This document shows positions 1-41,674 of a stretch of 64,000 nucleotides of DNA, piece after piece. The stretch comes from Malacoraja senta (Eukaryota), in the NCBI GenBank assembly GCA_038087875.1, contig CM075994.1, positions 930,001-994,000 on the forward strand, written 5' to 3'. The translations under genes and the position numbers were made by a program. Positions within the stretch are counted from its first letter, which is position 1, and the number at the start of each line of letters is the position of its first letter. Under the pieces are notes generated by a model. The model did no database searches and had not been told where the DNA came from. It saw nothing but the letters and a program-made list of their open reading frames with translations.

Positions 1-307
1 CTCTCACCCCAACCACAGACTGTTTACCCTCCTACCGTCCGGGAGGCGCTACAGGTCTCTCCGTTGCCGGACCAGCAGGTCCAGGGACAGCTACTTCCCT
101 GCGGCGGTTACACTACTCAACACTGTACCTCGGTGACTGCCAATCACCCCCCCCCCCCGGACACTCCTCCCACCAGGATTTATTAGATGTATTTATTTAC
201 TGCTCATATTTATGTCGCTCTTCCAGGGAGATGCTAACTGCATTTCGTTGTCTCTGTACTGTACACTGCACAATGACAATAAAGTTGAATCTGAATCTGA
301 ATCTGAA
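1..307 (+). mobile_element. 3' end of Rex1/Babar-type LINE
   Basis: Matches the ends of the longer copies ([20 protein letters not shown]...LLNTVPR*), AATAAA, (GAATCT)n tail. Confidence 0.9.
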
Positions 308-442
308 TGTAATGACTGTGGTTGTGAGTGCAATGTTATCTCTGAGGATCATTAGGTCTCATTAGTGCTGGTTTGCGAACACTCGCGTTGAATATTTGCT
401 CTGGCTAATGACATGGATGTCGCAAGAGACCATCTGCTCACG

Positions 443-448
443 TATAAA
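443..448 (+). promoter_or_regulatory. Candidate TATA box of GPCR copy 1, conserved in all five copies
   Basis: TATAAA 58 nt upstream of the ATG. An in-frame TAG upstream of the ATG supports this start. Confidence 0.45.
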
Positions 449-589
449 TCCTTCCGTTTCCAAAGCACCCCATTCATAGAGCGCCTCCTTTCACCAGAGG
501 ATGGGAACGTACGCACTTCACATCGAGATCTTCTGCCCGATTATTGCAGTCATTGGTGTGCCTGGTAAGTCATTTCATTTAATGTAGCG

Positions 590-908
590 GTGGTTTTCTC
601 TCCGTCCCTCCCCCACCCTATTTGTCGTACTAGTTTCACTGTCGTCTTATTGAGTTTCACTGTCTGTACAACTCGTTATCACCTAGCCCTCATCCAACAA
701 TGGGCCATCATGGGCTCTCCATTTTCTTGATAATCGTTACTTCATGAATAGCTTTCATTCATTTGCTCTTTATCTCTCTCTATCACCGACTATATCTCTC
801 GTTTTCTTTTCTCCTTACTGGTCTGAAATAAAGGTCTCGACCCGAAATGTCACTTATTCCTTCTCTCCAGAGATGCTGTCTGACCCACTGAGTTAATCCA
901 GCATTTTT
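590..908 (+). mobile_element. Penelope-derived/SINE-like 3' fragment in intron 1 (all units)
   Basis: Ends in ...tctcgacccgaaatgtcac...gagatgctgtctgacccactgagttaatccagcatt, with a degenerate hammerhead-like core at 821-853. Confidence 0.6.
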
Positions 909-1467
909 GTGCCTCTTACCAGAATGATGCCTGCTTTAGCGGGAATCAGCTACAAGGAGAAGTCGGACAGACTTGGATTGTTTTCTCTGGAATACCGGAG
1001 GTTGAATCTTTCTATGTCTCTTCATTGTTTTTGGCTGCAGTTGATTTCTCTGCATCCATTGTGCCAGTCAGTGGTCAGAGTCAGGGCAACGATGAGATTG
1101 TTCACTTTTGTGCTCTTGGCTTCAATGCTAAGGGAAGACGGATTGCTTCTAACATTGGGCAGGTAGTCGCTGGTCTGCGCAGGCCCGACGGGCCAAATGG
1201 CCTGTTTTCACGCTGTTCCTCTTGTTCCAGAGTTGCTGCCTCACATCGCAAAAGACCTGGGTTCAGTCCTGACCTCGGGTGTTGTGTATGGCCTGGATGG
1301 AGTGAATGTGAAGAGCCCGTCAAGTCTACTGTAACATTCAGTCATGGCTGATCTATCTTCCCCTGATCACCCCCATTCTCCTGCCTTTACCCACTATCCT
1401 TTAACCACCTTATTGATCAAGAACCTGTCAATCTCCGGTTAAGAACTACCCAAAAGACTTGGATCGT

Positions 1468-1695
1468 ATTCAGTTCAGTTGAATTTAGTTCATTATCACG
1501 TGTACCGAGGTACAGTGAAAAGCTTTTTTTGCGTGCTAACCAGTCAGCGGAAATACAATACATGATTACAATCGAGCCATTTCCAGTGTACAGATAATAG
1601 ATAAGGGAATGACGTTCAGTGCAAGGTAAAGCCAGCAAAGTCCGGTCACACATGGTCCGTGTCACTAATGAGGTAGAAAGTAGTTCAGGACTGCT
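1468..1695 (-). mobile_element. Retroposon 3' tail fragment in intron 1
   Basis: Reverse complement matches 4680-4900 and 60850-61060. Confidence 0.65.
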
Positions 1696-1937
1696 GAAAT
1701 TCTGGTTATATTTATTGCCGTTCCCTACAGATGCAGTCCCCCACGCCTCTATCCCATTTCCCTCTTGCTTCTCGCCGTTGTGTGTTTCCTTACAGCCAAC
1801 CTGATGTCCTTGGTGACCCTGTTCCGAGGAAAGTGCGGTCTCTCCAAAGACATCACCTGCTACATGATGGCCATGGCGATGGGTGATCTCATGGTGTTGG
1901 TCTTCAACGTCATAGTCAGCCAGTTAGTCAGGTACGT

Positions 1938-3412
1938 ACTGCATACCTGCTCCAACCTCATCTACTGCATGTGTAGGAAGGAACTGCAGATGCTGGTTTA
2001 CGCCGAAGATAGCCACAAAATGCTGGAGTAACGCGGCGGGACAGGCAGCATCTGCGGATAGAAAGAATGGGTGACGTTTCGGGTCGAGAGCCTTCTTCAG
2101 ACTGAGAGACAGTGGAAGGGGACACGCAGAGATATCAAAAGGAAAGGTGTGAAAACGAGACATCAAATGGGACGCTGTTACCGTAAAATACGATAGAACT
2201 TTACTAATGCCAGGAGGGAAAGTATTCTGCTAACAGTCATTAAAAAAAACCAAGATACATTAAATTAAAGTGACGAATGGGAAGGTTTGGGGATGTGCAA
2301 AGATTTGGGAAGGGGGGTGGGGGGTGAAGTGGTATTCTGATCAAGGGAAAAGTAGAATGGACCATTGTTAGCTCGGAGAAGTGGACAACGAAGCAAAGAG
2401 AGATAAATATTTAATCAAAGGGACAGTCAGACTGGTCGGGGAATTAGGATGGGATGGAGAGAGTGGAAAAGCAAGGGTCACTTGGAGTTAGAGAAGTCAA
2501 GCTGGGGTGTAAGCTGCCGAAGCGAAACACGAGGTGCTGTTGCTCCTGTTTGCGCTGGCCCTCACTCTGACAATGGTGGAGGCCCCTGACAGAATGGGTA
2601 GGTGTGCGAATGGGAGGAGGAGTAAAAGTGTTTGGCCACCGGGAGATATCCCAGTTCCCGATGTGGCCTCCTGGACATCGGCAACACAATGTGTAGACTG
2701 GGCGAAAATTTTGCCGAACACTTGCGCTCGGTCCGCCAAGACCTGCTGGATCTCCCGGTTTTTAACCATTCCCTTCCCGTTACCACACTGGCCTTTTTTA
2801 AAATCCTGGGCCTCCTTCACTGCCAGAGTGAGGTCACACGCAAACTGGAGGAACAGCATCTTACAACCCAACGGTATGAACATTGAATACTCCGATTTTA
2901 GGTAACCTTTCACCAACCTCCCGCAAAGCCCATTCCATTCTACCCCACACCACCCCTCTCTCTTCGCACGCCTCCCCGCTCCTGTTCCCCGCACAGCACT
3001 AAAGACCTGGGTTCGACTCTGACTTTGGTGTGTCTGTGTGTAGTATGAACATTCTGCCTGTGACTGCGTGGGTTTTATCCAGGTGCTCCGGATTGCTCCC
3101 ACACTCCACTGGTCTGATTGCAAAAGTTAGAGGAAACCTTGGGCACCCGGAGATACCCACGATGTCACGGGGACAACGGCCAATCTCAGGGCAGACTGCA
3201 CCCGTAGTCAGAATCGAACCCGGGTCTCTGGCAGCAACTCTACCGCTGCGCCACCGTGCCGACCCGCTGCGTTACTCCAGCGTTTTGTGTTTATCTTTCC
3301 TCCATTTGCTGCCTGACCCGCTGAGTTACATCCAGCGTTTTGTATATCTATTTTTCTTTCCAGGGCCGCTGCCTGACCCGCTGAGTCACCCCGGCGTTTC
3401 TTGTCCTTTCAG
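1938..3412 (+). mobile_element. Composite Penelope-like remnant filling intron 2
   Basis: Plus-strand GIY-YIG remnant TCSNLIYC / RCGLLDIGNTMCRLGENFAEHLRSVRQ...LQPNGMNIEYSDFR*, split by a minus-strand Penelope 3' end (about 1971-2645). Then two inverted SINE heads (about 3000-3260) and three tandem terminal pieces up to the acceptor. Confidence 0.75.
2071..2104 (-). ncRNA. Penelope-type minimal hammerhead ribozyme motif
   Basis: Minus strand reads cagt-CTGAAGA-aggctctcgaccc-GAAAC-GTC-ac. Paralogues at 14410-14443, 22937-22970 (mutated) and 39544-39577; deleted in unit 5. Confidence 0.6.
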
Positions 3413-4614
3413 GTACCACTTCCCCGGGTCTCCGCTCCGCTACACGCCCGTGTGCCGGCTCAGTGCCTACCTGCAAGGCTTCAGTTTCCAGCTCAATACC
3501 TGGTTCACCGTGGCCTTCACGTGTGACCGTTTCGTGGCTATCTGTTGCCGGAAGCTGAGGCGCACGTATTGCACCGAGCGAACCGCGGCGATGGTGTTAG
3601 CGGCGGTAGGAATGGTCAGCGTGTTGACGAACGCGCCCTGGCCTCTCCGCTACCGGCCCTGTCACACCGTTCACCGTGTAGCCTACGATTGCTGCCCTGT
3701 GCCGGGACACCTGGAATCCCCACTGTGGTCCGCCCATCGCTGGGCCTCCAACCTCCTCAACACCTTCCTCCCCATCCCCGCCCTGCTGCTTCTGAATTCG
3801 CTGACCGCCAGACACGTCCTGTGGGCTAGCAGGGCCCGACTGGCCCTGAAGGGCCTCTCCAGGGGGGCGGGGGCAACGACCCCGAGGTCAGGAGCCGGAG
3901 GGCTTCGGTCGCCCTGCTGTTCGCCGTCTCCGGGAGCTTCGTGGCGCTGGCCGTTCCCATCACGGTGATCCACGCCTGGGTGGGGGTGAGCGGGACGGTG
4001 ATGTTCCGCGGTCCCCGCTCGCTGTACAAGGCCGTGCAAGTCGCGATGCTGCTGAAGTGCCTCGGTTCCTGCACAAACACCTGTGTGTACGCCCTCACCC
4101 AGAGCAGGTTCAGAGCGCAGTTGAAAGCCCTGCTCACATCCCCCTTCGCCGCCCTGTGCATAGGTGTTAAGGTGAGGGGGAAAGATGTACGAGGAACCTG
4201 AGGGGTACCCTTCAGCCAAACTTGCTCACAATGGCCCCCATGCTCCGTCTACACTAGGCCCACCTGCCTGCATTTGGTCCATATCCCTCCAAACCTGTCC
4301 GATCCATGTACGTGTATAAATGTTTCTTAAACGTTGTGATAATTAACCCTATGTCCTGCACTTAGAACGTGGAACTTAGCACTGGAACACAATGTCCGTG
4401 CCACAATGACCGTGCCAAACACGATGGCAAGATCATCTAATCTCTATGTTGCCGCGTGGGTTTCCTCTCGGTGCAGCATTTCCTTCCACACCCTATAAAT
4501 TTTGTAGGATATTTGGACTCACCAAATTGCCCATTAGAGTATAGGGAGTTCTCCTCTCTCCCCTTTTCTCCCCTCTCCCATCGCGCAAAATGTATAGAAA
4601 TATGAATACACACA

Positions 4615-4980: not shown

Positions 4981-6137
4981 ATCATCATTGAATCATTGAA
5001 CCATTGAATCATTCAACCATTGAATCATTGAATCATTGAACCATTGAATCATTCAACCATTCAGCCAGTGAACCATTGAATCATTGAACCAGTCAGCCAT
5101 TGAGTCATTGAGCCATTCAATCATTGAACCATTGAGCCATTGAATCATTGAACCAATGAGCCATTGAACCATTGAACTATTGAGCCTTTGAATCATTGAA
5201 CCATTGAATCATTCAACCATTCAACCATTATAACCATATAACCATATAACAATTACAGCACGGAAACAGGCCATCTCGGCCCTTGTAGTCCGTGCCGAAC
5301 ACTTACTCTCACCTAGTCGCATCTACCTGCACTCAGACCATAAGCATGGAACCATTGAAACAATGAATCATTGAATCGTTGAACGATTGAGCCATTGAAT
5401 CATTGAACCATTGAACGATTGAGCCATTGAGCCATTGAACCATTGAATCATTGAGCCATTTGTCCTTTAATCTGGTTGATCACAAACTCTGTTCTCATTG
5501 GGTCCATTCGAAGCGGGGAGAAATCTCGTCTGCACGGAGTAAATAACATTAATTGAATCATTGAACCACAGAACCATTGAATCATTGAGCCAATGAATCA
5601 TTGGATCATTGAATCATTGAACCGTTGAACCGTTGAGCCATTGAGCCATTGAACCATTGAACCATTGAATCACCGAATCATTGAACCATCGAATCATTGA
5701 ACAATTGTATCATTGAGCCATCAAAACATCGAACCATTGAACCATTGAATCGTGGAATCATTAAATCATTGAACCATTGAGCCATTGAACCATTGAACCA
5801 TTGAGCCATTGAATCATTGAATCATTGAATCATTGAACCGTTGAACCGTTGAGCCATTGAGCCATTGAACCGTTGAGCCATTGAACGATGGAGCCATTGA
5901 ATCATTGAATCATTGAATCATTGAATCATTGAGTCATTGAGCCATTGAATCATTGAATCATTGAATCATTGAACCATTGAGCCATTGAGCCATTGAATCA
6001 TGGAGCCATTGAACCATTGAGCCATTGAATCGTTGAACCATAGAGCCATTGAGCCATTTAGCCATTAAGCCATTGAACCATTGAGCCATTGAATCGTTGA
6101 ACCATAGAGCCATTGAACCAATGAACCATTGAGCCAT
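4981..6137. repeat. 8-bp minisatellite (CATTGAAT/CATTGAAC/CATTGAGC)n, unit 1
   Basis: Variant octamers, interrupted by a retroposon tail and a duplicated spacer of about 90 bp. Confidence 0.95.
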
Positions 6138-6279
6138 TTGTTCTTTACAAACTTTGTTCCCATTGGGTCCATTCGAAGCGGGGAGAAATCTCGTCTGCAC
6201 GGAGTAAATAACATAAACTGCAGTCACTGAATTCACTGTTTCACAACGGGACACGAAATGGAATATTATTTCAATGTTT

Positions 6280-12839: not shown

Positions 12840-15800
12840 ATGGGAACGTACGCACTTCACATCGAGATCTTCTACCCGATTATTGCAGTCATTGGTGTGC
12901 CTGGTAAGTCATTTCATTTAATGTAGCGGTGGTTTTCTCTCCGTCCCTCCCCCACCCTAGTTGTCGTACTAGTTTCACTGTCGTCTTATTGAGTTTCACT
13001 GTCTGTACAACTCGTTATCCCCTAGCCCTCATCCAACAATGGGCCATCATGGGCTCTCCATTTTCTTGATCATCGTTACTTTATGAATAGCTTTCATTCA
13101 TTTGCTCTTTATCTCTCTCTATCACCGACTATATCTCTCGTTTTCTTTTCTCCTTACTGGTCTGAAATAAAGGTCTCGACCCGAAATGTCACTTATTCCT
13201 TCTCTCCAGAGATGCTGTCTGACCCACTGAGTTAATCCAGCATTTTTGTGCCTCTTACCAGAATGATGCCTGCTTTAGCGGGAATCAGCTACAAGGAGAA
13301 GTCGGACAGACTTGGATTGTTTTCTCTGGAATACCGGAGGTTGAATCTTTCTATGTCTCTTCATAGTTTTTGGCTGCAGTTGATTTCTCTGCATCCATTG
13401 TGCCAGTCAGTGGTCAGAGTCAGGGCAACGATGAGATTGTTCACTTTTGTGCTCTTGGCTTCAATGCTAAGGGAAGACGGATTGCTTCTAACATTGGGCA
13501 GGTAGTCGCTGGTCTGCGCAGGCCCGACGGGCCAAATGGCCTGTTTTCACGCTGTTCCTCTTGTTCCAGAGTTGCTGCCTCACATCGCAAAAGACCTGGG
13601 TTCAGTCCTGACCTCGGGTGTTGTGTATGGCCTGGCTGGAGTGAATGTGAAGAGCCCGCCAAGTCTACTGTAACATTCAGTCATGGCTGATCTATCTTCC
13701 CCTGATCACCCCCATTCTCCTGCCTTTACCCCCTATCCTTTAACCACCGTATTGATCAAGAACCTGTCAATCTCCGGTTAAGAACTACCCAAAAGACTTG
13801 GATCGTATTCAGTTCAGTTGAATTTAGTTCATTATCACGTGTACCGAGGTACAGTGAAAAGCTTTTTTTGCGTGCTAACCAGTCAGCGGAAATACAATAC
13901 ATGATTACAATCGAGCCATTTCCAGTGTACAGATAATAGATAAGGGAATGACTTTCAGTGCAAGGTAAAGCCAGCAAAGTCCGGTCACACATGGTCCGTG
14001 TCACTAATGAGGTAGAAAGTAGTTCAGGACTGCTGAAATTCTGGTTACATTTATTGCCGTTCCCTACAGATGCAGTCCCCTACGCCTCTATCCCATTTCC
14101 CTCTTGCTTCTCGCCGTTGTGTGTTTCCTTACAGCCAACCTGATGTCCTTGGTGATCCTGTTCCGAGGAAAGTGCGGTCTCTCCAAAGACATCACCTGCT
14201 ACATGATGGCCATGGCGATGGGTGATCTCATGGTGTTGGTCTTCAACGTCATAGTCAGCCAGTTAGTCAGGTACGTACTGCATACCTGCTCCAACCTCAT
14301 CTACTGCATGTGTAGGAAGGAACTGCAGATGCTGGTTTACGCCGAAGATAGCCACAAAATGCTGGAGTAACGCGGCGGGACAGGCAGCATCTGCGGATAG
14401 AAAGAATGGGTGACGTTTCGGGTCGAGAGCCTTCTTCAGACTGAGAGACAGTGGAAGGGGACACGCAGAGATATCAAAAGGAAAGGTGTGAAAACGAGAC
14501 ATCAAATGGGACGCTGTTACCGTAAAATACGATAGAACTTTACTAAACCCAGGAGGGAAAGTATTCTGCTAACAGTCATAAAAAAAAACAAGATACATTA
14601 AATTAAAGTGACGAATGGGAAGGTTTGGGGATGTGCAAAGATTTGGGAAGGGGGGTGGGGGGTGAAGTGGTATTCTGATCAAGGGAAAAGTAGAATGGAC
14701 CATTGTTAGCTCGGAGAAGTGGACAACGAAGCAAAGAGAGATAAATATTTAATCAAAGGGACAGTCAGACTGGTCGGGGAATTAGGATGGGATGGAGAGA
14801 GTGGAAAAGCAAGGGTCACTTGGAGTTAGAGAAGTCAAGCTGGGGTGTAAGCTGCCCAAGCGAAATACGAGGTGCTGTTGCTCCTGTTTGCGCTGGCCCT
14901 CACTCTGACAATGGAGGAGGCCCCTGACAGAATGGGTAGGTGTGCGAATGGGAGGAGGAGTAAAAGTGTTTGGCCACCGGGAGATATCCCAGTTCCCGAT
15001 GTGGCCTCCTGGACATCGGCAACACAATGTGTAGACTGGGCGAAAATTTCGCCGAACACTTGCGCTCGGTCCGCCAAGACCTGCTGGATCTCCCGGTTTT
15101 TAACCATTCCCTTCCCGTTACCACACTGGCCTTTTTTAAAATCCTGGGCCTCCTTCACTGCCAGAGTGAGGCCACACGCAAACTGGAGGAACAGCATCTT
15201 ACAACCCAACGGTATGAACATTGAATACTCCGATTTTAGGTAACCTTTCACCAACCTCCCGCAAAGCCCATTCCATTCTACCCCACACTACCCCTCTCTC
15301 TTCGCACGCCTCCCCGCTCCTGTTCCCCGCACAGCACTAAAGACCTGGGTTCGACTCTGACTTTGGTGTGTCTGTGTGTAGTATGAACATTCTGCCTGTG
15401 ACTGCGTGGGTTTTATCCAGGTGCTCCGGATTGCTCCCACACTCCACTGGTCTGATTGCAAAAGTTAGAGGAAACCTTGGGCACCCGGAGATACCCACGA
15501 TGTCACGGGGACAACGGCCAATCTCAGGGCAGACTGCACCCGTAGTCAGAATCGAACCCGGGTCTCTGGCAGCAACTCTACCGCTGCGCCACCGTGCCGA
15601 CCCGCTGCGTTACTCCAGCGTTTTGTGTTTATCTTTCCTCCATTTGCTGCCTGACCCGCTGAGCTACTCCAGCGTTTTGTATCTATTTTTCTTTCCAGGG
15701 CCGCTGCCTGACCCGCTGAGTCACCCCGGCGTTTCTTGTCCTTTCAGGTACCACTTCCCCGGGTCTCCGCTCCGCTACACGCCCGTGTGCCGGCTCAGTG

Positions 15801-16537
15801 CCTACCTGCAAGGCTTCAGTTTCCAGCTCAATACCTGGTTCACCGTGGCCTTCACGTGTGACCGTTTCGTGGCTATCTGTTGCCGGAAGCTGAGGCGCAC
15901 GTATTGCACCGAGAGAACCGCGGCGATGGTGTTAGCGGCGGTAGGAATGGTCAGCGTGTTGACGAACGCGCCCTTGCCTCTCCGCTACCGGCCCTGTCAC
16001 ACCGTTCACCTTGTGGCCTACGGTTGCTGCCCTGTGCCGGGACACCTGGAATCCCCACTGTGGTCCGCCCATCGCTGGGCCTCCAACCTCCTCAACACCT
16101 TCCTCCCCATCCCCGCCCTGCTGCTTCTGAATTCGCTGACCGCCAGACACATCCTAGGGGCTAGCAGGGCCCGACTGGCCTTGAAGGGCCCTCTCCAGGG
16201 GGGCGGGGGCAACGACCCCGAGGTCAGGAGCCGGAGGGCTTCGGTCGCCCTGCTGTTCGCCGTCTCCGGGAGCTTCGTGGCGCTGGCCGTTCCCATCACG
16301 GTGATCCACGCCTGGGTGGGGGTGAGCGGGACGGTGATGTTCCGCGGTCCCCGCTCGCTGTACGCGGCCGTGCAAGTCGCGATGTTGCTGAAGTGCCTCG
16401 GTTCCTGCACAAACACCTGTGTGTACGCCCTCACCCAGAGCAGGTTCAGAGCGCAGTTGAAAGCCCTGCTCACATCCCCCTTCGCTGCTCTGTGCATAGG
16501 TGTTAAGGTGAGGGGGAAAGATGTACGAGAAACCTGA
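12840..16537 (+). CDS. GPR139/GPR142-like orphan class A GPCR, copy 2 (intact, 329 aa)
   Basis: Exons 12840-12903, 14135-14270 and 15748-16537 total 990 nt, all with canonical GT-AG sites. MGTYALHIEIFYPIIAVIGVP/ANLMSLVILFRGKCGLS...AMAMGDLMV...VR/YHFPG...TPVC...WFTVAFTCDRFVAIC...SCTNTCVYALTQSRFR; seven hydrophobic segments. Confidence 0.9.
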
Positions 16538-21334: not shown

Positions 21335-24300
21335 ATGGGAACGTACGCATTTCACATCGAGATCTTCTACCCGATTATTGCAGTCATTGGTGTGCCTTGT
21401 AAGTTATTTCATTTAATGTAGCGGTGGTTTTCACTCCGTCCCTCCCCCACCCTAGTTGTCGTACTAGTTTCACTGTCGTCTTATTGAGTTTCACTGTCTG
21501 TATAACTCGTTATCACCTAGCCCTCATCCAACAATGGGCCATCATGGGCTCTCCATTTCCTTGATCATCGTTACTTTATGCATAGCTTTCATTTATTTGC
21601 TCTTTATCTCTCTCTATCACCGACTGTATCTCTCGTTTTCTTTTCTCCTTACTGGCCTGAAATAAAGGTCTCGACCCGAAATGTCACTTATTCCTTCTCT
21701 CCAGAGATGCTGTCTGACCCACTGAGTTAATCCAGCATTTTTGTGCCTCTTACCAGAATGATGCCTGCTTTAGCGGGAATCAGCTACAAGGAGAAGTCGG
21801 ACAGACTTGGATTGTTTTCCCTGGAATACCGCAGGTTGAATGGAGACCTTCTATGTCTCTTCATTGTTTTTGGCTGCAGTTGATTTCTCTGCATCCATTG
21901 TGCCAGTCAGTGGTCAGAGTCAGGGCAACGGTGAGATTGTTCACTTTTGTGCTCTTGGTTTCAATGCTAAGGGAAGACGGATTGCTTCTAACATCGGGCA
22001 GCTAGTCGCTGGTCTGCGCAGACCCGACGGGCCGAATGGCCCGTTTTCACCCTTATTGTCTAAAATTAGGTGTAGCACCGTGGCGCAGAGGGAGAGTTGC
22101 TGCCTCACATCGCAAAAGACCTGGGTTCAGTCCTGACCTCGGGTGTTGTGTATGGCCTGGATGGAGTGAATGTGAAGAGCCCGTCAAGTCTACTGTAACA
22201 TTCAGTCATGGCCGATCTATCTTCCCCTGATCACCCCCATTCTCCTGCCTTTTCCCCCTATCCTTTCACAACCTTATTGATCAAGAACCTGTCAATCTAC
22301 GGTTAAGAAATACCCAAATGACTTGGATCGTATTCAGTTCAGTGGAATTTAGTACATTATCACGTGTACCGAGGTACAGTGAAAAGCGTTTCTTGCGTGC
22401 TAACCAGTCAGCGGAAATACAATACATGATTACAATCGAGCCATTTCCAGTGTACAGATACATGATAAGGGAATGACGTTCAGTGCAAGTTAAAGCCATC
22501 AAAGTCCGGTCACACATGGTCCGTGTGTCACCAATGAGTTAAAAAGTAGTTCAGGACTGCTGAAATTCTGGTTACATTTATTGCCGTTCCCTACAGATGC
22601 AGTCCCCTACGCCTCTATCCCATTTCCCTCTTGCTTCTCGCCGTTGTGTGTTTCCTTACAGCCAACTTGATGTCCTTGGTGATCCTATTTCGAGGAAAGT
22701 GCGTTCTCTCCAAAGACATCACCTGCTACATGATGGCCATGGCGATGGGTGATCTCATGGTGTTGGTCTTCAACGTCATAGTCAGCCAGATAGTCAGGTA
22801 CGTACTGGATACCTGCTCCAACCTCATCTACTGCATGTGTAGGAAGGAACTGCAGATGCTGGTTTACGCCGAAGATAGACACAAAATGCTGGAGTAACGC
22901 GGCGGGACAGGCAGCACCTGCGGATAGAAAGAATGGGTGAGGTTTCGGGTCGAGAGCCTTCTTCAGACTGAGAGTCAGTGGAGGGGGACACGCAGAGATA
23001 TGAAAAGGATAGGTGTGAAAACGAGACATCAAATGGGACGCTGATACCATACAATACGATAGAACTTTACTAATCCCAGGAGGGAAAGTATTCTGCTAAC
23101 AGTCATAAAAAAACAAGATACATTAAATTAAAGTGACGAATGGAAAGGTTTGGGGATGTGCAAAGATTTGGGAAGGGGGGTGGGGGGTGAAGAGGTATTC
23201 TGATCAAGGGAAAAGTAGAATGGACCATTGTTAGCTCGGGGAAGTGGACAACGAAGCAAAGAGAGATAAATATTTAATCAAAGGGACAGTCAGACTGGTC
23301 GGGGAATTAGGATGCGATGGAGAGAGAGGAAAAGCAAGGGTCACTTGGAGTTAGAGAAGTCAAGCTGGGGTGTAAGCTGCCCAAGCGAAACACGAGGTGC
23401 TGTTGCTCCTGTTTGCGCTGGGCCTCACTCTGACAATGGAGGCGGCCCCTGACAGAATGGGTAGGTGTGCGAATGGGAGGAGGAGTAAAAGTGTTTGGCC
23501 ACCGGGAGATATCCCAGTTCCCGATGTGGCCTCCTGGACATCGGCAAGACAATGTGTAGACTGGGCGAAAATTTCGCCGAACACTTGTGCTCGGTCCGCC
23601 AAGACCTGCTGGATCTCCCGGTTTTTAACCATTCCCTTCCCGTTACCACACTGACCTTTTTTTTAAAATCCTGGGCCTCCTTCACTGCCAGAGTGAGGCC
23701 ACACGCAAACTGGAGGAACAGCATCTTACAACCCAACGGTATGAACATTGAATACTCCGATTTTAGGTAACCTTTCACCAACCTCCCCCAAAGCCCATTC
23801 CATTCTACCCCACACCACCCCTCTCTCTTCCCACGCCTCCCCGCTCCTGTTCCCCTGCACAGCACTAAAGACCTGGGTTCGACTGACTTTGGTGTGTCTG
23901 TGTGTAGTATGAACATTCTGCCTGTGACTGCGTGGGTTTTATCCGGATGCTCCGGATTGCTCCCACACTCCACTGGTCTGATTGCAAAAGTTAGAGGAAA
24001 CCTTGGGCACCCGGAGAATACCCACGATGTCACGGGGAAAACGGCCAATCTCCGGGCAGACTGCACCCGTAGTGAGAATCGAACCCGGGGCTCTGGCAGC
24101 AACTCTACCGCTGCGCCACCGTGCCGACCCGCCGCGTTACTCCGGCGTTTTGTGTTTATCTTTCCTCCATTTGCTGCCTGACCCGCTGAGTTACTCCAGC
24201 GTTTTGTATCTATATTTCTTTCCAGAGCCGCTGCCTGACCCGCTGAGTCACCCCGGCGTTTCTTGTCCTTTCGGGTACCACTTCCCCGGGTCTCCGCTCC

Positions 24301-33194: not shown

Positions 33195-36100
33195 ATGGGA
33201 ACGTACGCACTTCACATCGAGATCTTCTACCCGATTATTGCAGTCATTGGTGTGCCTGGTAAGTCATTTCATTTAATGTAGCGGTGGTTTTCTCTCCGTG
33301 CCTCCCTCCCCCACCCTAGTTGTCGTATTAGTTTCACTGTCGTCTTATTGAGTTTCACTCTCTGTATAACTCGTTATCACCTAGCCCTCATCCAACAATG
33401 GGCCATCATGGGCTCTCCATTTCATTGATCATCGTTACTTTATGCATAGCTTTCATTCATTTGCTCTTTATATCTCTCCATCACCGACTATATCTCTCGT
33501 TTTCTTTTCTCCTTACTGGTCTGAAATAAAGGACTCGACCCGAAATGTCACGTATTCCTTCGCTCCGGAGATGCTGTCTGACCCACTGAGTTAATCCAGC
33601 ATTTGTGTGCCTCTTAGCAGAATGACGCCTGCTTTAGCGGGAATCAGCTACAAGGAGAAGTCGGACAGACTTGGATTGTTTTCTCTGGAATACCGGAGGT
33701 TAAATGGAGACCTTCTATGTCTCTTCATTGTTTTTGGCTGCAGTTGATTTATCTGCATCCATTGTGCCAGTCAGTGGTCAGAGTCAGGGCAACGATGAGA
33801 TTATTCACTTTTGTGCTCTTGGTTTCAATGCTAAGGGAAGACGGATTGCTTCTAACATTGGGCAGGTAGTCGCTGGTCTGCGCAGGCCCGACGGGCCGAA
33901 AGGCCTGTTTTCACTCTTATTGTCTAAAATTAGGTGTAGCACCGTGGCGCAGATGGAGAGTTGCTGCCTCACATCGCAAAAGACCTGGGTTCAGTCCTGA
34001 CCTCGGGTATTGTGTATGGCCTGGATGGAGTGAATGTGAAGAACCCGTCAAGTCTACTGTAACATTCAGTCATGGCTGATCTATCTTCCCCTGATCACCC
34101 CCATTCTCCTGCCTTTTCCCCCTATCCTTTAACAACCTTATTGATCAAGAGCCTGTCAATCTCCGGTTAACAAATACCCAAATGACTTGGATCGTATTCA
34201 GTTCAGTTGAAATTAGTTCATTATCACGTGTACCGAGGTACAGTGAAAAGCTTTTGTTGCGTGCTAACCAGTCAGCGGAAATCGCGATTACAATCGAGCC
34301 ATTTCCAGTGTACAGATACATGATAAGGGAATGACGTTCAGTGCAAGGTAAAGCCATCAAAGTCCGGTCACACATGGTCCGAGTGTCACCAATGAGGTAG
34401 AAAGTAGTTCAGGACTGCTGAAATTATTGTTACATTTATTGCCGTTCCCTACAGATGCAGTCCCCTACGCCTCTATCCCATTTCCCTCTTGCTTCTCGCC
34501 GTTGTGTGTTTCCTTACAGCCAACTTGATGTCCTTGGTGATCCTGTTTCGAGGAAAGTGCTGTCTCTCCAAAGACATCACCTGCTACATGATGGCCATGG
34601 CGATGGGTGATCTCTTGGTGTTGGTCTTCAACGTCATAGTCAGCCAGATAGTCAGGTACTGTAAAGAATCTATAACGAGGCATCGTTACTTTACTATCTT
34701 TATTCATACTGGAGCATTACATATTGCACTAGCTGTACGTGGTCTGTCACAGGAACTAGAGAGCGATCTGTGGGTGGGGAGGTTGTAGTTATACTTGTGA
34801 TATGGGGAGTGGTTAGTAGGTATGAGGTCACTATGTTAAAGGCACATGCATATATCATCTACATCCTTCCCCTCCGAATCGACAGGCAAATACAATGGTG
34901 ACAGGGCGACCACGGCTCATGCGCTAGGATGGTTAAACAAAATCGCCATAGCGGACAGGCGGTTTCGCAAGACGTCCCGACCGGGTTCGCGTCTCGCCAT
35001 CCTCCCTTCCGGCAGGAGGAAGAGGCACCGATGGGGACAGACGAACCTGAAAGGGGGAAACGGGAGGAGACGGAGGAGACCGCGGCACCAAACCCGGAGG
35101 TGATGCGGGATCAGGAGCGGGCAGTGCGCGGGCAGGCGAGCGAGGACTAGTCGGAGCAGGGTGGGACGGAAGGAGTTGAGGAGGTGCAGAACGTTGCATG
35201 TTAGGAAGGACGGGCAGAGCAACGCCCGGACGCGAAGCCGGCAGTGGGGGAGCAAAGGGATCCGCCGCAGGAGGACGCGGCTCGTTGAAGAGCCAAAGGT
35301 GCTGGCGGGACCGTCGGTAAATGGCTCCCGCATGGTCGACGAGATAAGACCTGGGCGACCCCGCAGAGCCGACGACGGTGGCGAGCTTGGAGTGACCGGA
35401 AGTGGTCTGCATACGGACAACTTGACCGGGGAAGAGGCGCGGCAGCGGGTGGCAGGACCTGTCATGGGAACGCTTTTGGACATTGTGCCTGAATGCAATG
35501 CGTTTCTGAACCGCCGCAGGTGGGAGGACGGAGGGTATGAGGGAGCGCTGGGCCACCGGGAGCGGGAGCCTGGTAGCGCGAGACATGAGCCGCTGAGCAG
35601 GGGAACCCATGGCAGAGTCGCGGAAAATGTTGCGGAGGTTGAGGAGGGCCAGATGGAAGTCGGAGTTAATGCCACCACACTGTTCCAGCAGGTGCTTCGC
35701 GCTGCGGACGGCACGCTCGGCCAGACCGTTGCTTTGCGGGTACTCCGGGCTGCTGGTGAAATGGCGGAAGTTCCAACTGGAAGCGAACGCTTTAAACTCG
35801 GAGCTCGTGAACTGGCTGCCATTGTCCGATTGCAGGCTTGCCGGGGGGCCAAAAGTGCCAAAATGAGGGTACAACCTGTCGATGATGGCCGAAGAGGTTA
35901 GGGAGTGCAGCCGGTCGACCACAAACCAGCTGGAGTAGGAGTCAACGAGAACCAGGAAGTGTTTGCCTCGCCACTCGAAAATGTCGGCGGCGAGCGCCAT
36001 CCAGGGCAGTTCGGGCGCGGGCTGCTGCAGAAGCGGCTGACGCTGCTGGTGGGGGGCGAGGCTGTTGCAGGTGGAACACGAGGAGACCCTCTCCCGGATG

Positions 36101-39100
36101 TATTTGGCCATGTCCGGCCAATAGAACTGGCTCCTGGCGAGAGACACGGTGGCTTCGGCCCCAGGATGACCGCGGTGAGCGACTTGAAAATAGTGGTCGT
36201 GCAGCGCCGCGGGCACGACCACCTTGTGACCCTTCACCACCACGCCGTCGTGTAGTACGAGCTCATCACGGACCAGGAAGTAGGGCACGGCACCAGCCGG
36301 CAGTGCGGAACGACGGTCGGGCCAGCCCCGCTGGATGACGGCAGACAGCTGTTGCAGGGCCGGGTCATTGGTAGTGTGTTCAACCAGGGACTTCATCTGT
36401 TGTGAAGGGACGATGTCCATTTGGAGCACCAATAGATCAGACATCTCATATGGGTGGCGAACGGTGGACGACAGCGGGGCGCGAGACAACGTGTCGGCCA
36501 CGAACATGTCCTTGCCCTTACGATAAACCACCGTGAACGTGAAGCGCTGGAGCTGCAGCATCATGCGCTGTAGGCGTGATGAGGCCACATGGATCGACTT
36601 GTTGAGGATGGTGACAAGTGGCTGATGGTCAGTTTCAATGGTGAAAGTGTTGCCCACGATGTAGTCTCTGAATTTGGAGCAGGCAAACACCACGGCCAGT
36701 AGCTCCTTCTCAATCTGCGCGTAGTGCTGTTCGGTGACGGTCATGGTGCGGGATGCGAAGGAGACAGGCAGCTGTAGGCCGTCATGGACCTGGAGACAGG
36801 CGGCACCGAGTCCGAACTGAGAGGCGTCGCAGGTGAGGACAATGGGACGCTGCAGGTCAAAAAACTTGAGCGTGGGGGTGCTGATCAGCTTGGACTTAAG
36901 AATGTCGAATGCTTTCTGATGGTGGGGGAACCAAGCCCAGGACGTGTCCTTTTTTATCAAATCCCTCAGGGGAGCGCTGAGCTCCCTGAGGTCGGGGATG
37001 AACTTCCCCAGGTAGTTTACCAAGCCCAGGAAGCGTTGTAGGCCTGCCACATTAGTAGGAGAAGGCATCCCTGAAATGGCAGCCGTTTTTTGCGGGTCTG
37101 GCTTTAACCCCTCGGCGGTGAATACATGTCCAACATAGGTGACCTCCGGGACGCGGAATCGGCACTTCTTGGGGTTAAGTTTCAAGTTGATTTGCCGGGC
37201 CCGGTCCAGGACCTGGCGGAGGTTGACATCGTGTTCGGCAACGTCCTTACCGTAAACGAGGATGTCGTCAACAATGATGGCGCACGGTAGACCTGAAAAC
37301 AACTGCTCCATTGTCCGCTGGAATACCTCGCTGGCAGAGTTGATTCCGAATGGCATTCGGAGGAACCGAAACCTCCCGTAGGGGGTGGCGAAAGTTGTCA
37401 AAATGGACGACTGCTCGTCCAGTGGTATCTGCCAGAAGGAGCTTTTGGCATCGAGGACAGAAAAAACCGTTGCCGGACCAACCTGTGCAGCGACTTCTTC
37501 TACCGTTCTCATGGGGTAGTGCGGGCGTCTAATGGCCAGGTTGAGGTCTTTGGGGTTGATGCAGATGCGTATCTCGCTCATGTCCTTTTTCGCAGCAACA
37601 ACCATGGAAGAGACCCACCTGGTGGGCTCGATGACCACCTTTAGGATGCCCATTTGTACCATACTGTGTAGTGTCGACTCCACTCTGTCCTTCATGGCGA
37701 AGGCGACACGGTGAGGAGCATTGACCACTGGATCGATCTTACGGTCCACTACAATCTTGTAGCTGCAGGGTAGTTTGCCTAGCTCATCATCAAAGCGGTC
37801 GGGATAATCGGCCAGCGGGTCCATGAGGGCCTGCACCTGGTGGATGTCACGGTGGAAGGATACTAGTCCCATTTCCTGGCATGCCCGGATGCCCAGCAGG
37901 GGAATGCATTTTTGATCGAGGAGATAGAAGGTGAGGGGCCGAGAGGTCTCTAGTATCTTACAGCGTAGCGTGGCCTTGCCCACAGGAGTAAGAATCTCCC
38001 CCCCCCCGTAGGCATGCAAGGTTGAGTTCTGAGAAAAAATCTGCTCATTAGTCCTTATCTGTTTGAAGACAGATGTTGACATTACGTTCGCAACCGCCCC
38101 CGTGTCAATCTTAGCAGTGAAGGTCGAGTTGTTCACAGTGACTCGCACAGAAGGGTCCGTTATCATAGCAGGTGCGCCCAACACAGTATACAAGCTGTTC
38201 TCCCCCTGAGAGGAGTCGGATGCAGAAACAGACTGTTCATCGAAATAGCACTGGGAGCTGAGCTCACTATCAGTTTGTAGAAGGTTGTTTAAATTTCCCC
38301 TCGGAGCAGCGACAGGCTTCCCACGGGAGCGCCGCAGCAAAATGGTTCAATTTCTTGCAGAAAGTACACGTTTTACCCAAGGCAGGGCACACATTGTATT
38401 GATGAGTGGTGAAGTTGCAATTAGGGCACCTTTCCCGGGTACCTCCCCCGGGAGCAGTAACGAACCCCGGGGCACGTCCCCCTCGAGCAGCGAGCGACCC
38501 CGGGGGCCGCGAGCGGGGCGTGTTCATCAGATGACTGGGAGTGCTGGCACAGTTAATCGCCTGTTCAGCCGGTGACACCGCCGAGGTGACAGCTTCAGCT
38601 AAGCGAGTGGCGTGCATCGCATCGTTAAAAGTCAGATCCGGCTTGCGCAGAAGTTCGGCCCTGAGCTTATCATCGCGGAGACCGTAAACTAGAAGGTCCC
38701 TGATAATCTCATCGGGGGTCCACGTGTGGAGGCGGCAGCGCCTGGCCAGGTGGCGCAGCGCAGAGACATAGTTCTCAGCATTTTCCCCAGGTAGCTGACG
38801 CCGCGCGAACAGTTTAAAACGTTCTAAGATGCAGTTTGTTGGGATATCACAAATAGCATCAAACTTAGCCACCAGACATACCGGGTCCCGAGCTGATTCT
38901 CCAGCAGCGTAGACGAAGAAGTCAGAGCGAGTCAGGGCCTCGGGACCAGCCAAGTTGAGAAGCAGAGAGGCTTTGAGATCAGCGGTGGCGGCAGGATGAG
39001 CGATCGTGACATAGTGTTCAAAGTCACGTTTGAATACGTCCCATCGAAGGGCGATGTCTAAATCGAAAACGAGCACATCAGGCTTACGGGCAGAAGAGGC

Positions 39101-41674
39101 CATAACAAAGAAATGGGAGGGCGGGGGAAACAAAAAAACTGGGACAGAATTAAATGATAAACCGATAAACAGGAGGCGCAAGGTAAGTGGTTTGACACCA
39201 TGTAAAAATCTATAACGAGGCATCGTTACTTTACTATCTTTATTCATACTGGAGCATTACATATTGCACTAGCTGTACGTGGTCTGTCACAGGAACTAGA
39301 GAGCGATCTGTGTTTGGGGAGGTTGTAGTTATACTTGTGATATGGGGAGTGGTTAGTAGGTATGAGGTCACTATGTTAAAGGCACATGCATATATCATCT
39401 ACAGGTACGTACTGGATACCTGCTCCAACCTCATCTACTGCATATGTAGGAAGGAACTGCAGATGCTGGTTTACGCCGAAGATAGCCACAAAATGCTTGA
39501 GTAACGCGGCGGGACAGGCAGCATCTGCGGATAGAAAGAATGGGTGACGTTTCGGATCGAGAGCCTTCTTCAGACTGAGAGACAGTGGAAGGGGACACGC
39601 AGAGATATGAAAAGGAAAGGTGTGAAAACGAGACATCAAATGGGACGCTGTTACCCTACAATACGATAGAACTTTACTAATCCCAGGAGGGAAAGTATTA
39701 TGCTAACAGTCATAAAAAAAACAAGGTACATTAAATTAAAGTGACGAATGGAAAGGTTTGGGGATGTGCAAAGATTTGGGAAGGGGGGTGGGTGTGAAGT
39801 GGTATTCTGATCAAGGGAAATGTAGAATGGACAATTGTTAGCTGGGGGAAGTGGACAACGAAGCAAAGAGAGATAAATATTTAATCAAAGGGACAGTCAG
39901 ACTGGTCGGGGAATTAGGATGGGATGGAGAGAGAGGAAAAGCAATGGTCACTTGGAGTTAGAGAAGTCAAGCTGGGGTGTAAGCTGCCCAAGCGAAACAC
40001 GAGGTGCTGTTGCTCCTGTTTGCGCTGGGCCTCACTCTGACAATGGAGGAGGCCCCTGACAGAATGGGTAGGTGTGCGAATGGGAGGAGGAGTAAAAGTG
40101 TTTGGCCACCGGGAGATATCCCAGTTCCCGATGTGGCCTCCTGGACGTCGGCAAGACAATGTGTAGACTGGGCGAAAATTTCGCCGAACACTTGCGCTCG
40201 GTCCGCCAAGACCTGCTGGATCTCCCGGTTCTTAACCATTCCCTTCCCGTTACCACACTGACCTTTTTTTTTTTAAATCCTGGGCCTCCTTCACTGCCAG
40301 AATGAGGCCACACGCAAACTGGAGGAACAGCATCTTACAACCCAACGGTATGAACATTGAATACTCCGATTTTAGGTAACCCTTCACCAACCTCCCCCAA
40401 AGCCCATTCCATTCTACCCCATACCACCCCTCTCTCTTCCCACGCCTCCCCGCTCCTGTTCCCCGCACAGCACTAAAGACCTGGGTTCGACTCTGACCTT
40501 GGTGTGTCTGTGTGTAGTATGAACATTCTGCATGTGACTGCGTGGGTTTTATCCAGTTGCTCCGGATTGCTCCCACACTCCACTGGTCTGATTGCAAAAG
40601 TTAGAGGAAACCTTGGGCACCCGGAGAATACCCACGATGTCACGGGGACAACGGCCAATCTCCGGGCAGACTGCACCCGTAGTCAGAATCGAACCCGGGA
40701 CTCTGACAGCAACTCTACCGCTGCGCCACCGTGCCGACCCGTTGCGTTACTCCAGCGTTTTGTGTTTATCTTTCCTCCATTTGTTGCCTGACCCGCTGAG
40801 CTACTCCAGCGTTTTGTATCTATTTTTCTTTCCAGGGCCGCTGCCTGACCCGCTGAGTCACCCCGGCGTTTCTTGTCCTTTCGGGTACCACTTCCCCGGG
40901 TCTCCGCTCCGCTACACGCCCGTGTGCCGGCTCAGTGCCTACGTGCAAGGCTTCAGTTTCCAGCTCAATACCTGGTTCACCGTGTCCTTCACGTGTGACC
41001 GTTTCGTGGCTATCTGTTGCCGGAAGCTGAGGCGCACGTATTGCACCGAGCGAACCGCGGCGATGGTGTTAGCGGCGGTAGGAATGGTCAGTGTGTTGAC
41101 GAACGCGCCCTTGCCTCTCCGCTACCGGCCCTGTCACACCGTTCACCGTGTAGCCTACGGTTGCTGCCCTGTGCCGGGTCACCTGGAATCCCCACTGTGG
41201 TCCGCCCATCGCTGGGCCTCCAACCTCCTCAACACCTTCCTCCCCATCCCCGCCCTGCTGCTGCTGAGTTCGCTGACCGCCAGACACATCCTGTGGGCTA
41301 GCAGGGCCCGACTGGCCCTGAAGGGCCCTCTCCAGGGGGGCGGGGGCAACGACCCCGAGGTCAGGAGCCGGAGGGCTTCGGTCGCCCTGCTGTTCGCCGT
41401 CTCCGGGAGCTTCGTGGCGCTGGCCGTTCCCATCACGGTGATCCACGCCTGGGTGGGGGTGAGCGGGACGGTGATGTTCCGCGGTCCCCGCTCGCTGTAC
41501 GCGGCCGTGCAAGTCGCGATGCTGCTGAAGTGCCTCGGTTCCTGCACAAACACCTGTGTGTACGCCCTCACCCAGAGCAGGTTCAGAGCGCAGTTGAAAG
41601 CCCTGCTCACACCCCCCTTCGCTGCTCTGTGCATAGGTGTTAAGGTGAGGGGGAAAGATGTACGAGGAACCTGA
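33195..41674 (+). CDS. GPR139/GPR142-like GPCR, copy 4 (Gypsy in intron 2 donor, acceptor GG)
   Basis: Exons 33195-33258, 34520-34655 and 40885-41674 are open. Functional status uncertain. Confidence 0.68.
34660..34863 (-). repeat. Gypsy 3' LTR (204 bp)
   Basis: Differs from the other LTR by 2 substitutions and 1 indel; PPT adjacent. Confidence 0.95.
34933..38340 (-). CDS. pol: Gypsy Pol (protease, RT, RNase H, integrase)
   Basis: KIDTGA; LDAKSSFWQIP, RMPFG, IVDD; CDAS, YAQIEKE, TDHQPL; HRGH...CSTC, VDSYS, SDNGSQF, NGLAERAV. Confidence 0.93.
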   Translation of the reverse strand: MLRRSRGKPVAAPRGNLNNLLQTDSELSSQCYFDEQSVSASDSSQGENSLYTVLGAPAMITDPSVRVTVNNSTFTAKIDTGAVANVMSTSVFKQIRTNEQIFSQNSTLHAYGGGEILTPVGKATLRCKILETSRPLTFYLLDQKCIPLLGIRACQEMGLVSFHRDIHQVQALMDPLADYPDRFDDELGKLPCSYKIVVDRKIDPVVNAPHRVAFAMKDRVESTLHSMVQMGILKVVIEPTRWVSSMVVAAKKDMSEIRICINPKDLNLAIRRPHYPMRTVEEVAAQVGPATVFSVLDAKSSFWQIPLDEQSSILTTFATPYGRFRFLRMPFGINSASEVFQRTMEQLFSGLPCAIIVDDILVYGKDVAEHDVNLRQVLDRARQINLKLNPKKCRFRVPEVTYVGHVFTAEGLKPDPQKTAAISGMPSPTNVAGLQRFLGLVNYLGKFIPDLRELSAPLRDLIKKDTSWAWFPHHQKAFDILKSKLISTPTLKFFDLQRPIVLTCDASQFGLGAACLQVHDGLQLPVSFASRTMTVTEQHYAQIEKELLAVVFACSKFRDYIVGNTFTIETDHQPLVTILNKSIHVASSRLQRMMLQLQRFTFTVVYRKGKDMFVADTLSRAPLSSTVRHPYEMSDLLVLQMDIVPSQQMKSLVEHTTNDPALQQLSAVIQRGWPDRRSALPAGAVPYFLVRDELVLHDGVVVKGHKVVVPAALHDHYFQVAHRGHPGAEATVSLARSQFYWPDMAKYIRERVSSCSTCNSLAPHQQRQPLLQQPAPELPWMALAADIFEWRGKHFLVLVDSYSSWFVVDRLHSLTSSAIIDRLYPHFGTFGPPASLQSDNGSQFTSSEFKAFASSWNFRHFTSSPEYPQSNGLAERAVRSAKHLLEQCGGINSDFHLALLNLRNIFRDSAMGSPAQRLMSRATRLPLPVAQRSLIPSVLPPAAVQKRIAFRHNVQKRSHDRSCHPLPRLFPGQVVRMQTTSGHSKLATVVGSAGSPRSYLVDHAGAIYRRSRQHLWLFNEPRPPAADPFAPPLPASRPGVALPVLPNMQRSAPPQLLPSHPAPTSPRSPARALPAPDPASPPGLVPRSPPSPPVSPFQVRLSPSVPLPPAGREDGETRTRSGRLAKPPVRYGDFV
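38270..39103 (-). CDS. gag: Gypsy Gag (likely start MASSARKP at 39103)
   Basis: ERFKLFARRQLPGE...LRHLARRC, IRDLLVYGL; zinc knuckles CPNC...H...C and CTFCKKLNH, the second lacking its last Cys at the frameshift. Confidence 0.85.
   Translation of the reverse strand: MASSARKPDVLVFDLDIALRWDVFKRDFEHYVTIAHPAATADLKASLLLNLAGPEALTRSDFFVYAAGESARDPVCLVAKFDAICDIPTNCILERFKLFARRQLPGENAENYVSALRHLARRCRLHTWTPDEIIRDLLVYGLRDDKLRAELLRKPDLTFNDAMHATRLAEAVTSAVSPAEQAINCASTPSHLMNTPRSRPPGSLAARGGRAPGFVTAPGGGTRERCPNCNFTTHQYNVCPALGKTCTFCKKLNHFAAALPWEACRCSEGKFKQPSTN
39201..39403 (-). repeat. Gypsy 5' LTR (203 bp)
   Basis: Direct repeat of 34660-34863; PBS adjacent. Confidence 0.95.

Follow-up and report, generated by a model that had tools for sequence, protein, structure and literature searches.

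A Penelope retroelement insertion as the probable source of an intron in a GPR139-like receptor gene cluster of a skate-like genome

Results

The receptor gene and its family

The window analysed here is a stretch of 64,000 nucleotides (G000:C18:930001-994000), and lies in a genome of 1.94 Gb. The host gene encodes a class A GPCR (Pfam 7tm_1) and is present in several copies. The features of copy 1 are given below in window positions.

501 to 564, plus strand: coding part of exon 1 (MGTYALHIEIF...GVP), matching the N-terminus of P0001 and P0002
3' of exon 1, plus strand: donor of intron 1, CTG|GTAAG, phase 1, read from the copy 1 sequence
1796 to 1931, plus strand: exon 2 (TM1-TM2), ending GTC AG
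1928 to 1935, plus strand: left copy of an 8-bp duplication, TCAGGTAC, giving the donor CAG|GTAC
1932 to 3412, plus strand: intron 2 as predicted from the sequence, 1481 nt, GT..AG, phase 2
3409 to 3416, plus strand: right copy of the 8-bp duplication, TCAGGTAC, giving the acceptor TCAG|GTAC
3413 to 4201, plus strand: exon 3 (remainder of the 7TM domain), frameshifted in this copy, 251 aa

Human GPR139 matched the host protein over residues 10-143 only, with an E value of 8.4e-11 that was barely above that of CCKBR. The gene failed as a one-to-one ortholog of GPR139, more than 100 paralogs being found in the same genome (distances were taken from similarity scores). Exon 3 shared 89-91% identity with the NCBI models of Rhinoraja longicauda and Leucoraja erinacea that bear the name probable or putative GPR139, 68% with Pristis pectinata and up to 60% with sharks. 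In a tree of 40 proteins, three cluster copies and the two skate proteins were grouped with 100/100 support, with the sawfish as sister, followed by the sharks. The distant human match, the tree and the skate identities therefore indicated that the gene represents a single subfamily within a large GPR139-like expansion, the genome being skate-like. Judged from these comparisons, the host gene is a GPR139-like receptor and not GPR139 itself. Since it is a distant member of an expanded family, paralogs from the same genome and shark orthologs are the proper comparison. Mammalian GPR139, against which an earlier note on this DNA had set the gene, is the wrong comparator at E 8e-11 and with the gene in so large a family.

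The GPR139-like expansion is very large, with 3197 first-look candidates and more than 100 scored members with open frames on many contigs. The 40-protein tree gives the subfamily a long skate stem branch (0.35, with 0.11 for that of the sawfish), and GC3 reaches 0.79; a relaxation of selection or, close to the end of the contig, GC-biased conversion could each be the reason. No paper on the receptor expansion or on GPR139 exon structure was found in the literature covered, which included few subscription papers.

An 8-bp direct repeat at both ends of the predicted intron

The motif CAGGTAC, which the earlier note had reported at both junctions, is present at 1929-1935 and 3410-3416 and extends to a full direct repeat of 8 bp, TCAGGTAC, at 1928-1935 and 3409-3416. 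Its two copies read CAG|GTAC and TCAG|G, in agreement with the earlier proposal that a duplicated target yields both splice dinucleotides. Removing 1932-3412 in silico gave ...GTC AG|G TAC CAC, restoring V-R-Y-H in frame as had been claimed. In intact copies, the same removal produced a 329-aa frame that aligned without gaps across the junction with other receptors (40-row alignment), and the joined exons 2 and 3 were colinear with skate, sawfish and shark orthologs. Among the 17 copies having both junctions, the 8-bp repeat was intact in 13, reduced to 7 bp in one and to 5 bp in three, the last being the three copies with a mutated acceptor. Taking splice-consensus frequencies that we assume to hold, a repeat of this length at the junctions of an ordinary intron would be expected in very roughly 1 in 2000 cases.

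The insert is made of transposon sequence

Alignment of the insert with free Penelope and SINE copies of the same genome resolved it into the following parts.

1936 to 1970, plus strand: 5' end of the founding Penelope (GIY-YIG, T-C-S-N-L-I-Y-C), identified by alignment; its first bases, GT, are donor positions +5/+6
1971 to 2652, minus strand: nested antisense Penelope, 5'-truncated, identified by alignment; right boundary uncertain (2647-2656)
2648 to 2989, plus strand: founder continued, with the rest of GIY-YIG, the stop and the start of the 3' region (264/330 identical to free copy L079)
2990 to 3108, plus strand: SINE half with its 3' part missing (91/120 to a SINE copy in L156)
3109 to 3258, minus strand: the other SINE half, joined tail-to-tail to the first (118/155 to the L156 SINE copy)
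3257 to 3408, plus strand: three tandem pLTR 3' halves, the last ending at the tail-less terminus (identified by repeat and alignment)

The earlier note had placed the start of GIY-YIG homology a few nucleotides past the donor, and had named homology stopping short of the intron ends as grounds for giving up its reading. With blastn, GIY-YIG homology begins at 1939-1945; a pairwise alignment extends it to 1930 through the AGGT that is common to target and element, with two 2-nt insertions. At the other end, the pLTR 3' half extends to 3405-3408, abuts the right repeat and carries the pyrimidine tract, as the note had stated. Transposon homology was thus found within 0-9 nt of the left end and 0-3 nt of the right end. 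The proposed transposon-mediated origin holds in that Penelope homology reaches both intron ends. The flanking tiles contain 39 pLTR motifs in 120 kb on both strands, so a sense terminus would fall within a few bases of the acceptor by chance about once in 1000. At the level of these alignments, transposon sequence makes up the whole length of the insert, with no non-transposon sequence left, and the intron is a composite with nested elements.

The founder parts at 1936-1970 and 2648-2989 are both in sense orientation and in register across the gap. Between them, the nested antisense Penelope contains the end of GIY-YIG, the 3' region, a pLTR with a hammerhead core and the tailed end; it is identical to the founder at only 79/106 positions of their common part and is therefore a different copy. 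At the SINE pair, whose halves (2990-3258) we take to be tRNA-type, about 200-290 nt of the founder 3' region are absent, including the sense hammerhead core, a loss that a single deletion between the inverted SINE pair would explain. Later additions, namely the antisense Penelope and the two SINE halves, account for about two thirds of the present intron. The founder is only 73-79% identical to its best free relatives, indicating that it is old. As its left and right parts are not contiguous, a single founding molecule is the parsimonious reading. Only the GIY-YIG end of the element is present, and the insert searched alone gave no Pfam match; an Rfam search gave no ribozyme or hammerhead match. 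With the inter-SINE deletion (2990-3258), the founder pLTR lost its sense hammerhead core and the antisense nested copy keeps one; selection could have favoured ridding the pre-mRNA of a self-cleaving motif.

The intron is a gain shared by related organisms

A genome search with the sawfish ortholog led to the scoring of 124 of the 3197 candidates. Sixteen were cluster copies, and the other 108/108 scored paralogs run through the insertion site continuously. Orthologs and paralogs aligned across the junction without an indel, and QIVRYH stands in the protein models of sawfish (P0111) and zebra shark (P0011), indicating that the target was present once before insertion. The earlier note had proposed to look for an uninterrupted exon 2+3 in relatives from other chondrichthyans; 108/108 paralogs of this genome show it, and the ortholog protein models align there without an indel. 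The note's claim that the intron is a gain and not ancient stands on the continuity of all 108 non-cluster paralogs.

Contigs from four sequencing runs of four studies were placed on window positions 300-4400. Organisms B and C each have contigs across the donor (1662-1992/1994) as well as across the acceptor (from 3331 or 3286 to 3874). In organism D, the differences at 3343 and at 3513 have a single depth, and we read them as one contig across the acceptor. The three organisms differ from the window by 6-9% and also share the unique Penelope-SINE boundary. The junctions and this boundary in B, C and D place the insertion and its nested parts before their splits. Of the "lineage-specific gain" proposed earlier, the gain holds with the continuity of the paralogs, but its privacy to this genome does not, as three organisms 6-9% diverged carry the insert. 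Two other skates have full-length orthologs of 323-329 aa in their protein models, 89-91% identical over exon 3, and their distance is similar to that of the organisms carrying the insert.

Copies with intact and broken junctions

Exon 3 was found 19 times, 17 times on C18 (727-983 kb) and twice on C1041, and the Penelope segment was present at all 19 copies, in line with the later tandem amplification that had been suggested. With the second copy on C1041 left out, and one C18 copy having no exon 2, the junctions examined comprised 18 acceptors and 17 donors. GT was kept at 17/17 donors and AG at 15/18 acceptors. Sixteen copies are complete with three exons. Seven combine GT-AG with a 329-aa frame and nine are broken, six by a stop or frameshift and three, with open frames, by AG>GG. 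An unspliced reading stops at 99 aa in 13/16 copies; in the remaining three, the stops come at 55, 90 and 110 aa. Copy 1 (501-4201) is frameshifted by one C missing from a CCC run at about 3855, a deletion that could be an assembly error. The remaining introns of the window are as follows.

14271 to 15747, plus strand: intron of copy 2 (CDS 12840-16537); no other window copy combines GT-AG with an intact 329-aa frame
22798 to 24274, plus strand: intron of copy 3, acceptor AG mutated to GG in the sequence
34656 to 40884, plus strand: intron of copy 4, containing an LTR element (34660-39403), acceptor GG in the sequence
51194 to 52547, plus strand: intron of copy 5, with an internal deletion, acceptor GG in the sequence

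Splice signals

Using a U1 5' end motif that we assume to apply here, the donor CAG|GTACGT pairs at -9.3 kcal/mol, close to the intron 1 donor (-9.1 kcal/mol), against -7.1 kcal/mol for the same site followed by exon sequence, as in the right-hand copy. The two inserted bases would thus strengthen the donor. At the acceptor, 80% of the upstream 20 nt are pyrimidines, with a tract at 3397-3409, and a candidate branch point, CTGAC at 3373-3377, lies 37 nt upstream; both are pLTR-derived, and we take CTGAC to fit the branch-point consensus. A competing AG 49 nt upstream is just as rich in pyrimidines, and its use would shift the frame. Judging by these signals, this AG is the main risk to precise splicing.

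The last pLTR unit (3396-3409) has 12/14 pyrimidines, against a mean of 0.68 in pLTR copies elsewhere; only 3/109 of these are as pyrimidine-rich, one of them a cluster copy. This gives a weak, post hoc hint that the tract may have adapted after insertion. We rejected the loss of AG in the last unit as an adaptation, as 25/109 pLTR copies (including one cluster copy) are also without AG.

Use and selection after insertion

Because all copies carry the insert, all variation between them postdates the insertion. We compared 16 copies over 307 codons, with expectations computed within mutation classes; a raw pN/pS of 0.52 was set aside in favour of this within-class test because of the GC3 of 0.79. 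Variants present in at least two copies comprised 33 amino-acid-changing and 26 silent changes, with 42.5 changing expected (p=0.004), a modest deficit that leans on one mutation class and in which gene conversion makes the counts non-independent. For exon 3 alone, 31 changing variants in at least two copies were found vs 38.4 expected (p=0.016). Private variants were neutral (77 changing vs 72.1 expected). No stop was common to two or more copies (1.2 expected), and exonic indels common to copies numbered 0/5 vs 11/39 in the intron; both counts are too small to stand alone. These patterns fit a full-length receptor that would have been translated early in the expansion, with many copies decaying now.

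In the four sequencing runs, from four studies, coverage of the unique parts of the intron resembles that of genomic DNA. Among short protein fragments, one match spanning the junction was found, a shark-like gene model, and the metagenome scan gave none.

The Penelope family in this genome

Penelope pieces are very abundant, with 90,582 first-look candidates in the genome. The free relatives L153 and L154 have a frame of 734-770 aa with RT and, at the C-terminus, GIY-YIG, for which Pfam gave E values of 1e-5 to 1e-3 at 20-26 bits, just under the curated cut-offs. They belong to a young subfamily (L153, L154, L155, L163-L190) whose members agree at 97-99% in their 3' ends; L153-L155 and L163-L190 include near-complete frames of 642-770 aa.

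The 3' ends of the family are bimodal, 61/174 lying near the tailed end and 81/174 at 37-47 nt from it; the right terminus of the insert falls in this second, tail-less mode, directly at the right repeat. Young copies have 13 tailed and 15 tail-less ends (n=28). Twenty-four of these 28 are 5'-truncated within view (8/24 with inverted or tandem pieces, one with an N flank). A flanking duplication of 7-14 nt accompanies 9/24, of which one may be spurious, vs 2.5% in shuffled pairs, and in 15/24 the automatic test found no duplication of at least 7 nt. Old pLTR copies showed no clear excess of duplications (21/174 vs 4.2% in controls, many being tandem-pLTR artefacts), nor did old tailed ends (2/28 vs 6.1% in controls). 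The length of the repeat at the insert fits the duplications of the Penelope family, as far as these flanks tell. Rotifer Penelope elements are described, in the part of the source covered, with 8-10 bp TSDs, nesting in opposite orientation and 5' microhomology (PMC3846280). The tailed and tail-less end modes seen here resemble the two RT start sites described for a lizard element in the covered part of PMC11167929.

Proposed origin and alternative explanations

We propose that a Penelope element inserted into a once-continuous exon 2 and is likely spliced as a GT-AG intron that restores the original protein, a joint reading to which we give a probability of roughly 0.75. Its first part, an origin of the intron by Penelope insertion with an 8-bp duplication, is very probable from the structure of the insert; its second, precise splicing in the past and in some copies at present, is a little less so, though still quite likely. 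Under this proposal, a 5'-truncated sense Penelope would have been inserted by target-primed reverse transcription from the tail-less start site. Reverse transcription would have stopped in GIY-YIG and the product was probably joined via the common AGGT, the 8-bp target being duplicated. The left copy of the target, CAG|GTAC, would then serve as donor, with the first two inserted bases completing GTACGT, and the right copy, TCAG|G, as acceptor, with the pLTR end providing CTGAC and the pyrimidine tract just upstream. The spliceosome would have used both sites well enough for fixation in a skate ancestor. The antisense Penelope and the two SINEs, whose nesting is visible, were presumably added later, and one inter-SINE deletion would have removed part of the founder. 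The intron-bearing gene was then amplified to at least 19 copies, many of them now decaying.

A disabling or poorly spliced Penelope insertion, leaving a pseudogene subfamily or a mainly frameshifting site passively copied by segmental duplication, would account for the 9/16 broken complete copies, the neutral private variants and the competing AG at -49, and the long skate stem (0.35 vs 0.11 for sawfish) could reflect relaxed constraint. We consider it unlikely, as variants in at least two copies are poor in amino-acid changes (p=0.004) and without stops, the donor GT is kept in 17/17, and two other skates keep full-length orthologs of 323-329 aa (protein models). Moreover, the unspliced frame mostly ends at 99 aa, yet 7/16 copies keep GT-AG and 329 aa.

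A spliced intron could also have arisen by another route, in which double-strand-break repair or a short tandem duplication made the repeat and Penelope sequence came as repair filler, or filled or replaced the intron later. Introns ascribed to break repair are flanked by short direct repeats too (PMC3443670, in the part covered), Penelope pieces abound in this genome (90,582 first-look candidates), and SINEs separate the two founder parts. Such a route is nevertheless improbable, given that the intron retains no non-transposon sequence, that both ends belong to the same family on the same strand in the right order, with a natural terminus at the right, and that the repeat length fits the Penelope family here. 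Finally, hAT-like DNA transposons make 8-bp target duplications, and the length of the repeat is all that speaks for such an element, or for an ancient intron, with a secondary Penelope likeness. The two ends share no inverted repeat, an ancient intron would not retain an exact 8-bp repeat, and 108/108 paralogs without the intron contradict this origin, which we regard as highly improbable.

Relation to known cases of intron gain

In the AGGT proto-splice model, as set out in the covered part of a 2012 review, duplication of a transposon target gives AG|GT and AG|G and leaves the coding sequence unchanged after splicing; the cases given there are from Oryza, Drosophila, Oikopleura and Zea only (PMC3443670). 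At the sequence level, the locus shows what the model calls for: a gain, an AGGT-containing repeat, homology to both ends and a protein restored on removal. A target duplication giving both sites is found here too, in a vertebrate and with a Penelope element instead. Introns 3 and 5 of notothenioid slc26a2 are a further close case: these are also vertebrate, transposon-like, enlarged by nested insertion and common to related species, according to the part of PMC12357937 covered. They derive, however, from an unclassified inverted-repeat element in a teleost, with a 4-nt direct repeat and gt-ag in both kinds of repeat, whereas the present locus involves a classified retroelement in a cartilaginous fish, with an 8-bp duplication giving both sites. 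Introns gained by teleost GPCR genes (MC2R, MC5R, P2Y, CHRM3) likewise lie at proto-splice sites in class A coding exons; in the part of the source covered, they are dated to about 190-320 Myr with an unreadable origin (PMC3151243), while the founding element of the skate intron is still legible. We found no Penelope-born vertebrate intron and no transposon-born cartilaginous-fish intron in the literature covered, which included few subscription papers. The mechanism is textbook and has one fish precedent; the element class and the host lineage appear new.

We take Naiad/Chlamys elements to be a Penelope-like clade. The best match of one haptophyte introner family is a Naiad/Chlamys element (PMC12130899, supplement file 8, in the part covered), so that a Penelope-like source of introners may not be wholly new. 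"Co-opt both" introners, known in algae, likewise draw both splice sites from the insertion site, and a sea-urchin non-LTR family of four copies does so with a 5-bp duplication (PMC9860276 and PMC12130899, both in part). In the introner survey of 8,716 genomes, Amblyraja radiata and Leucoraja erinacea have 0 families in the parts covered, which included 12/14 supplement files (PMC12130899). Introners produce several independent introns per family, whereas here a single event was multiplied by gene duplication. The locus works like an introner insertion; only this one event was found.

Introns are rarely gained in vertebrates, usually by a mechanism that cannot be read; here the target, duplication, element and natural terminus are all legible. 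With at least 19 copies bearing intact and broken splice sites, the cluster amounts to a natural allelic series, which makes the AGGT-duplication model directly testable in a vertebrate. As a single event in a redundant receptor family, its functional consequence is probably small. More speculatively, skate Penelope elements might be pre-adapted intron makers, which we hold to be doubtful: with the tail-less end, CTGAC and the tract of pyrimidines would come to lie at a set distance from the 7-14 bp duplication, so that any sense insertion at an exonic AGGT could give a spliceable intron. If true, the locus would be one visible case of hidden retrotransposon-driven intron gain in cartilaginous fishes, and this intron stream would sit in a lineage used as a benchmark of intron stasis. 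Intron turnover is low when cartilaginous fishes and tetrapods are compared, according to the covered part of PMC12357937.

Further observations on the cluster

The AG>GG change occurs in three neighbouring copies (24273-24274, 40883-40884 and 52546-52547) whose exon frames are still open. In-frame substitute AGs lie at -27, which would add 9 aa, and at +51, which would remove 17 aa, a conserved Cys among them. By their exon 3, these copies are not one another's nearest relatives, a hint of gene conversion.

In copy 4 (34655-39408), a 4.7-kb LTR retroelement sits at the identical site with a 5-bp duplication, GGTAC; its LTRs (34660-34863 and 39201-39403) are 98.5% alike. The terminal CA of this element and the duplication rebuild CAG|GTACGT, an acceptor followed by an immediate donor, and copy 4 has lost the terminal AG.

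On C18, the cluster forms a large inverted arrangement of 8 minus-strand copies (727000-813000) and 9 plus-strand copies (817000-983000), the strand switching near an assembly gap (816898-817097). Downstream of the gene, every repeat unit has a CATTGAAC satellite of 1 kb and an ACTAA array (window 4986-6138 and equivalents).
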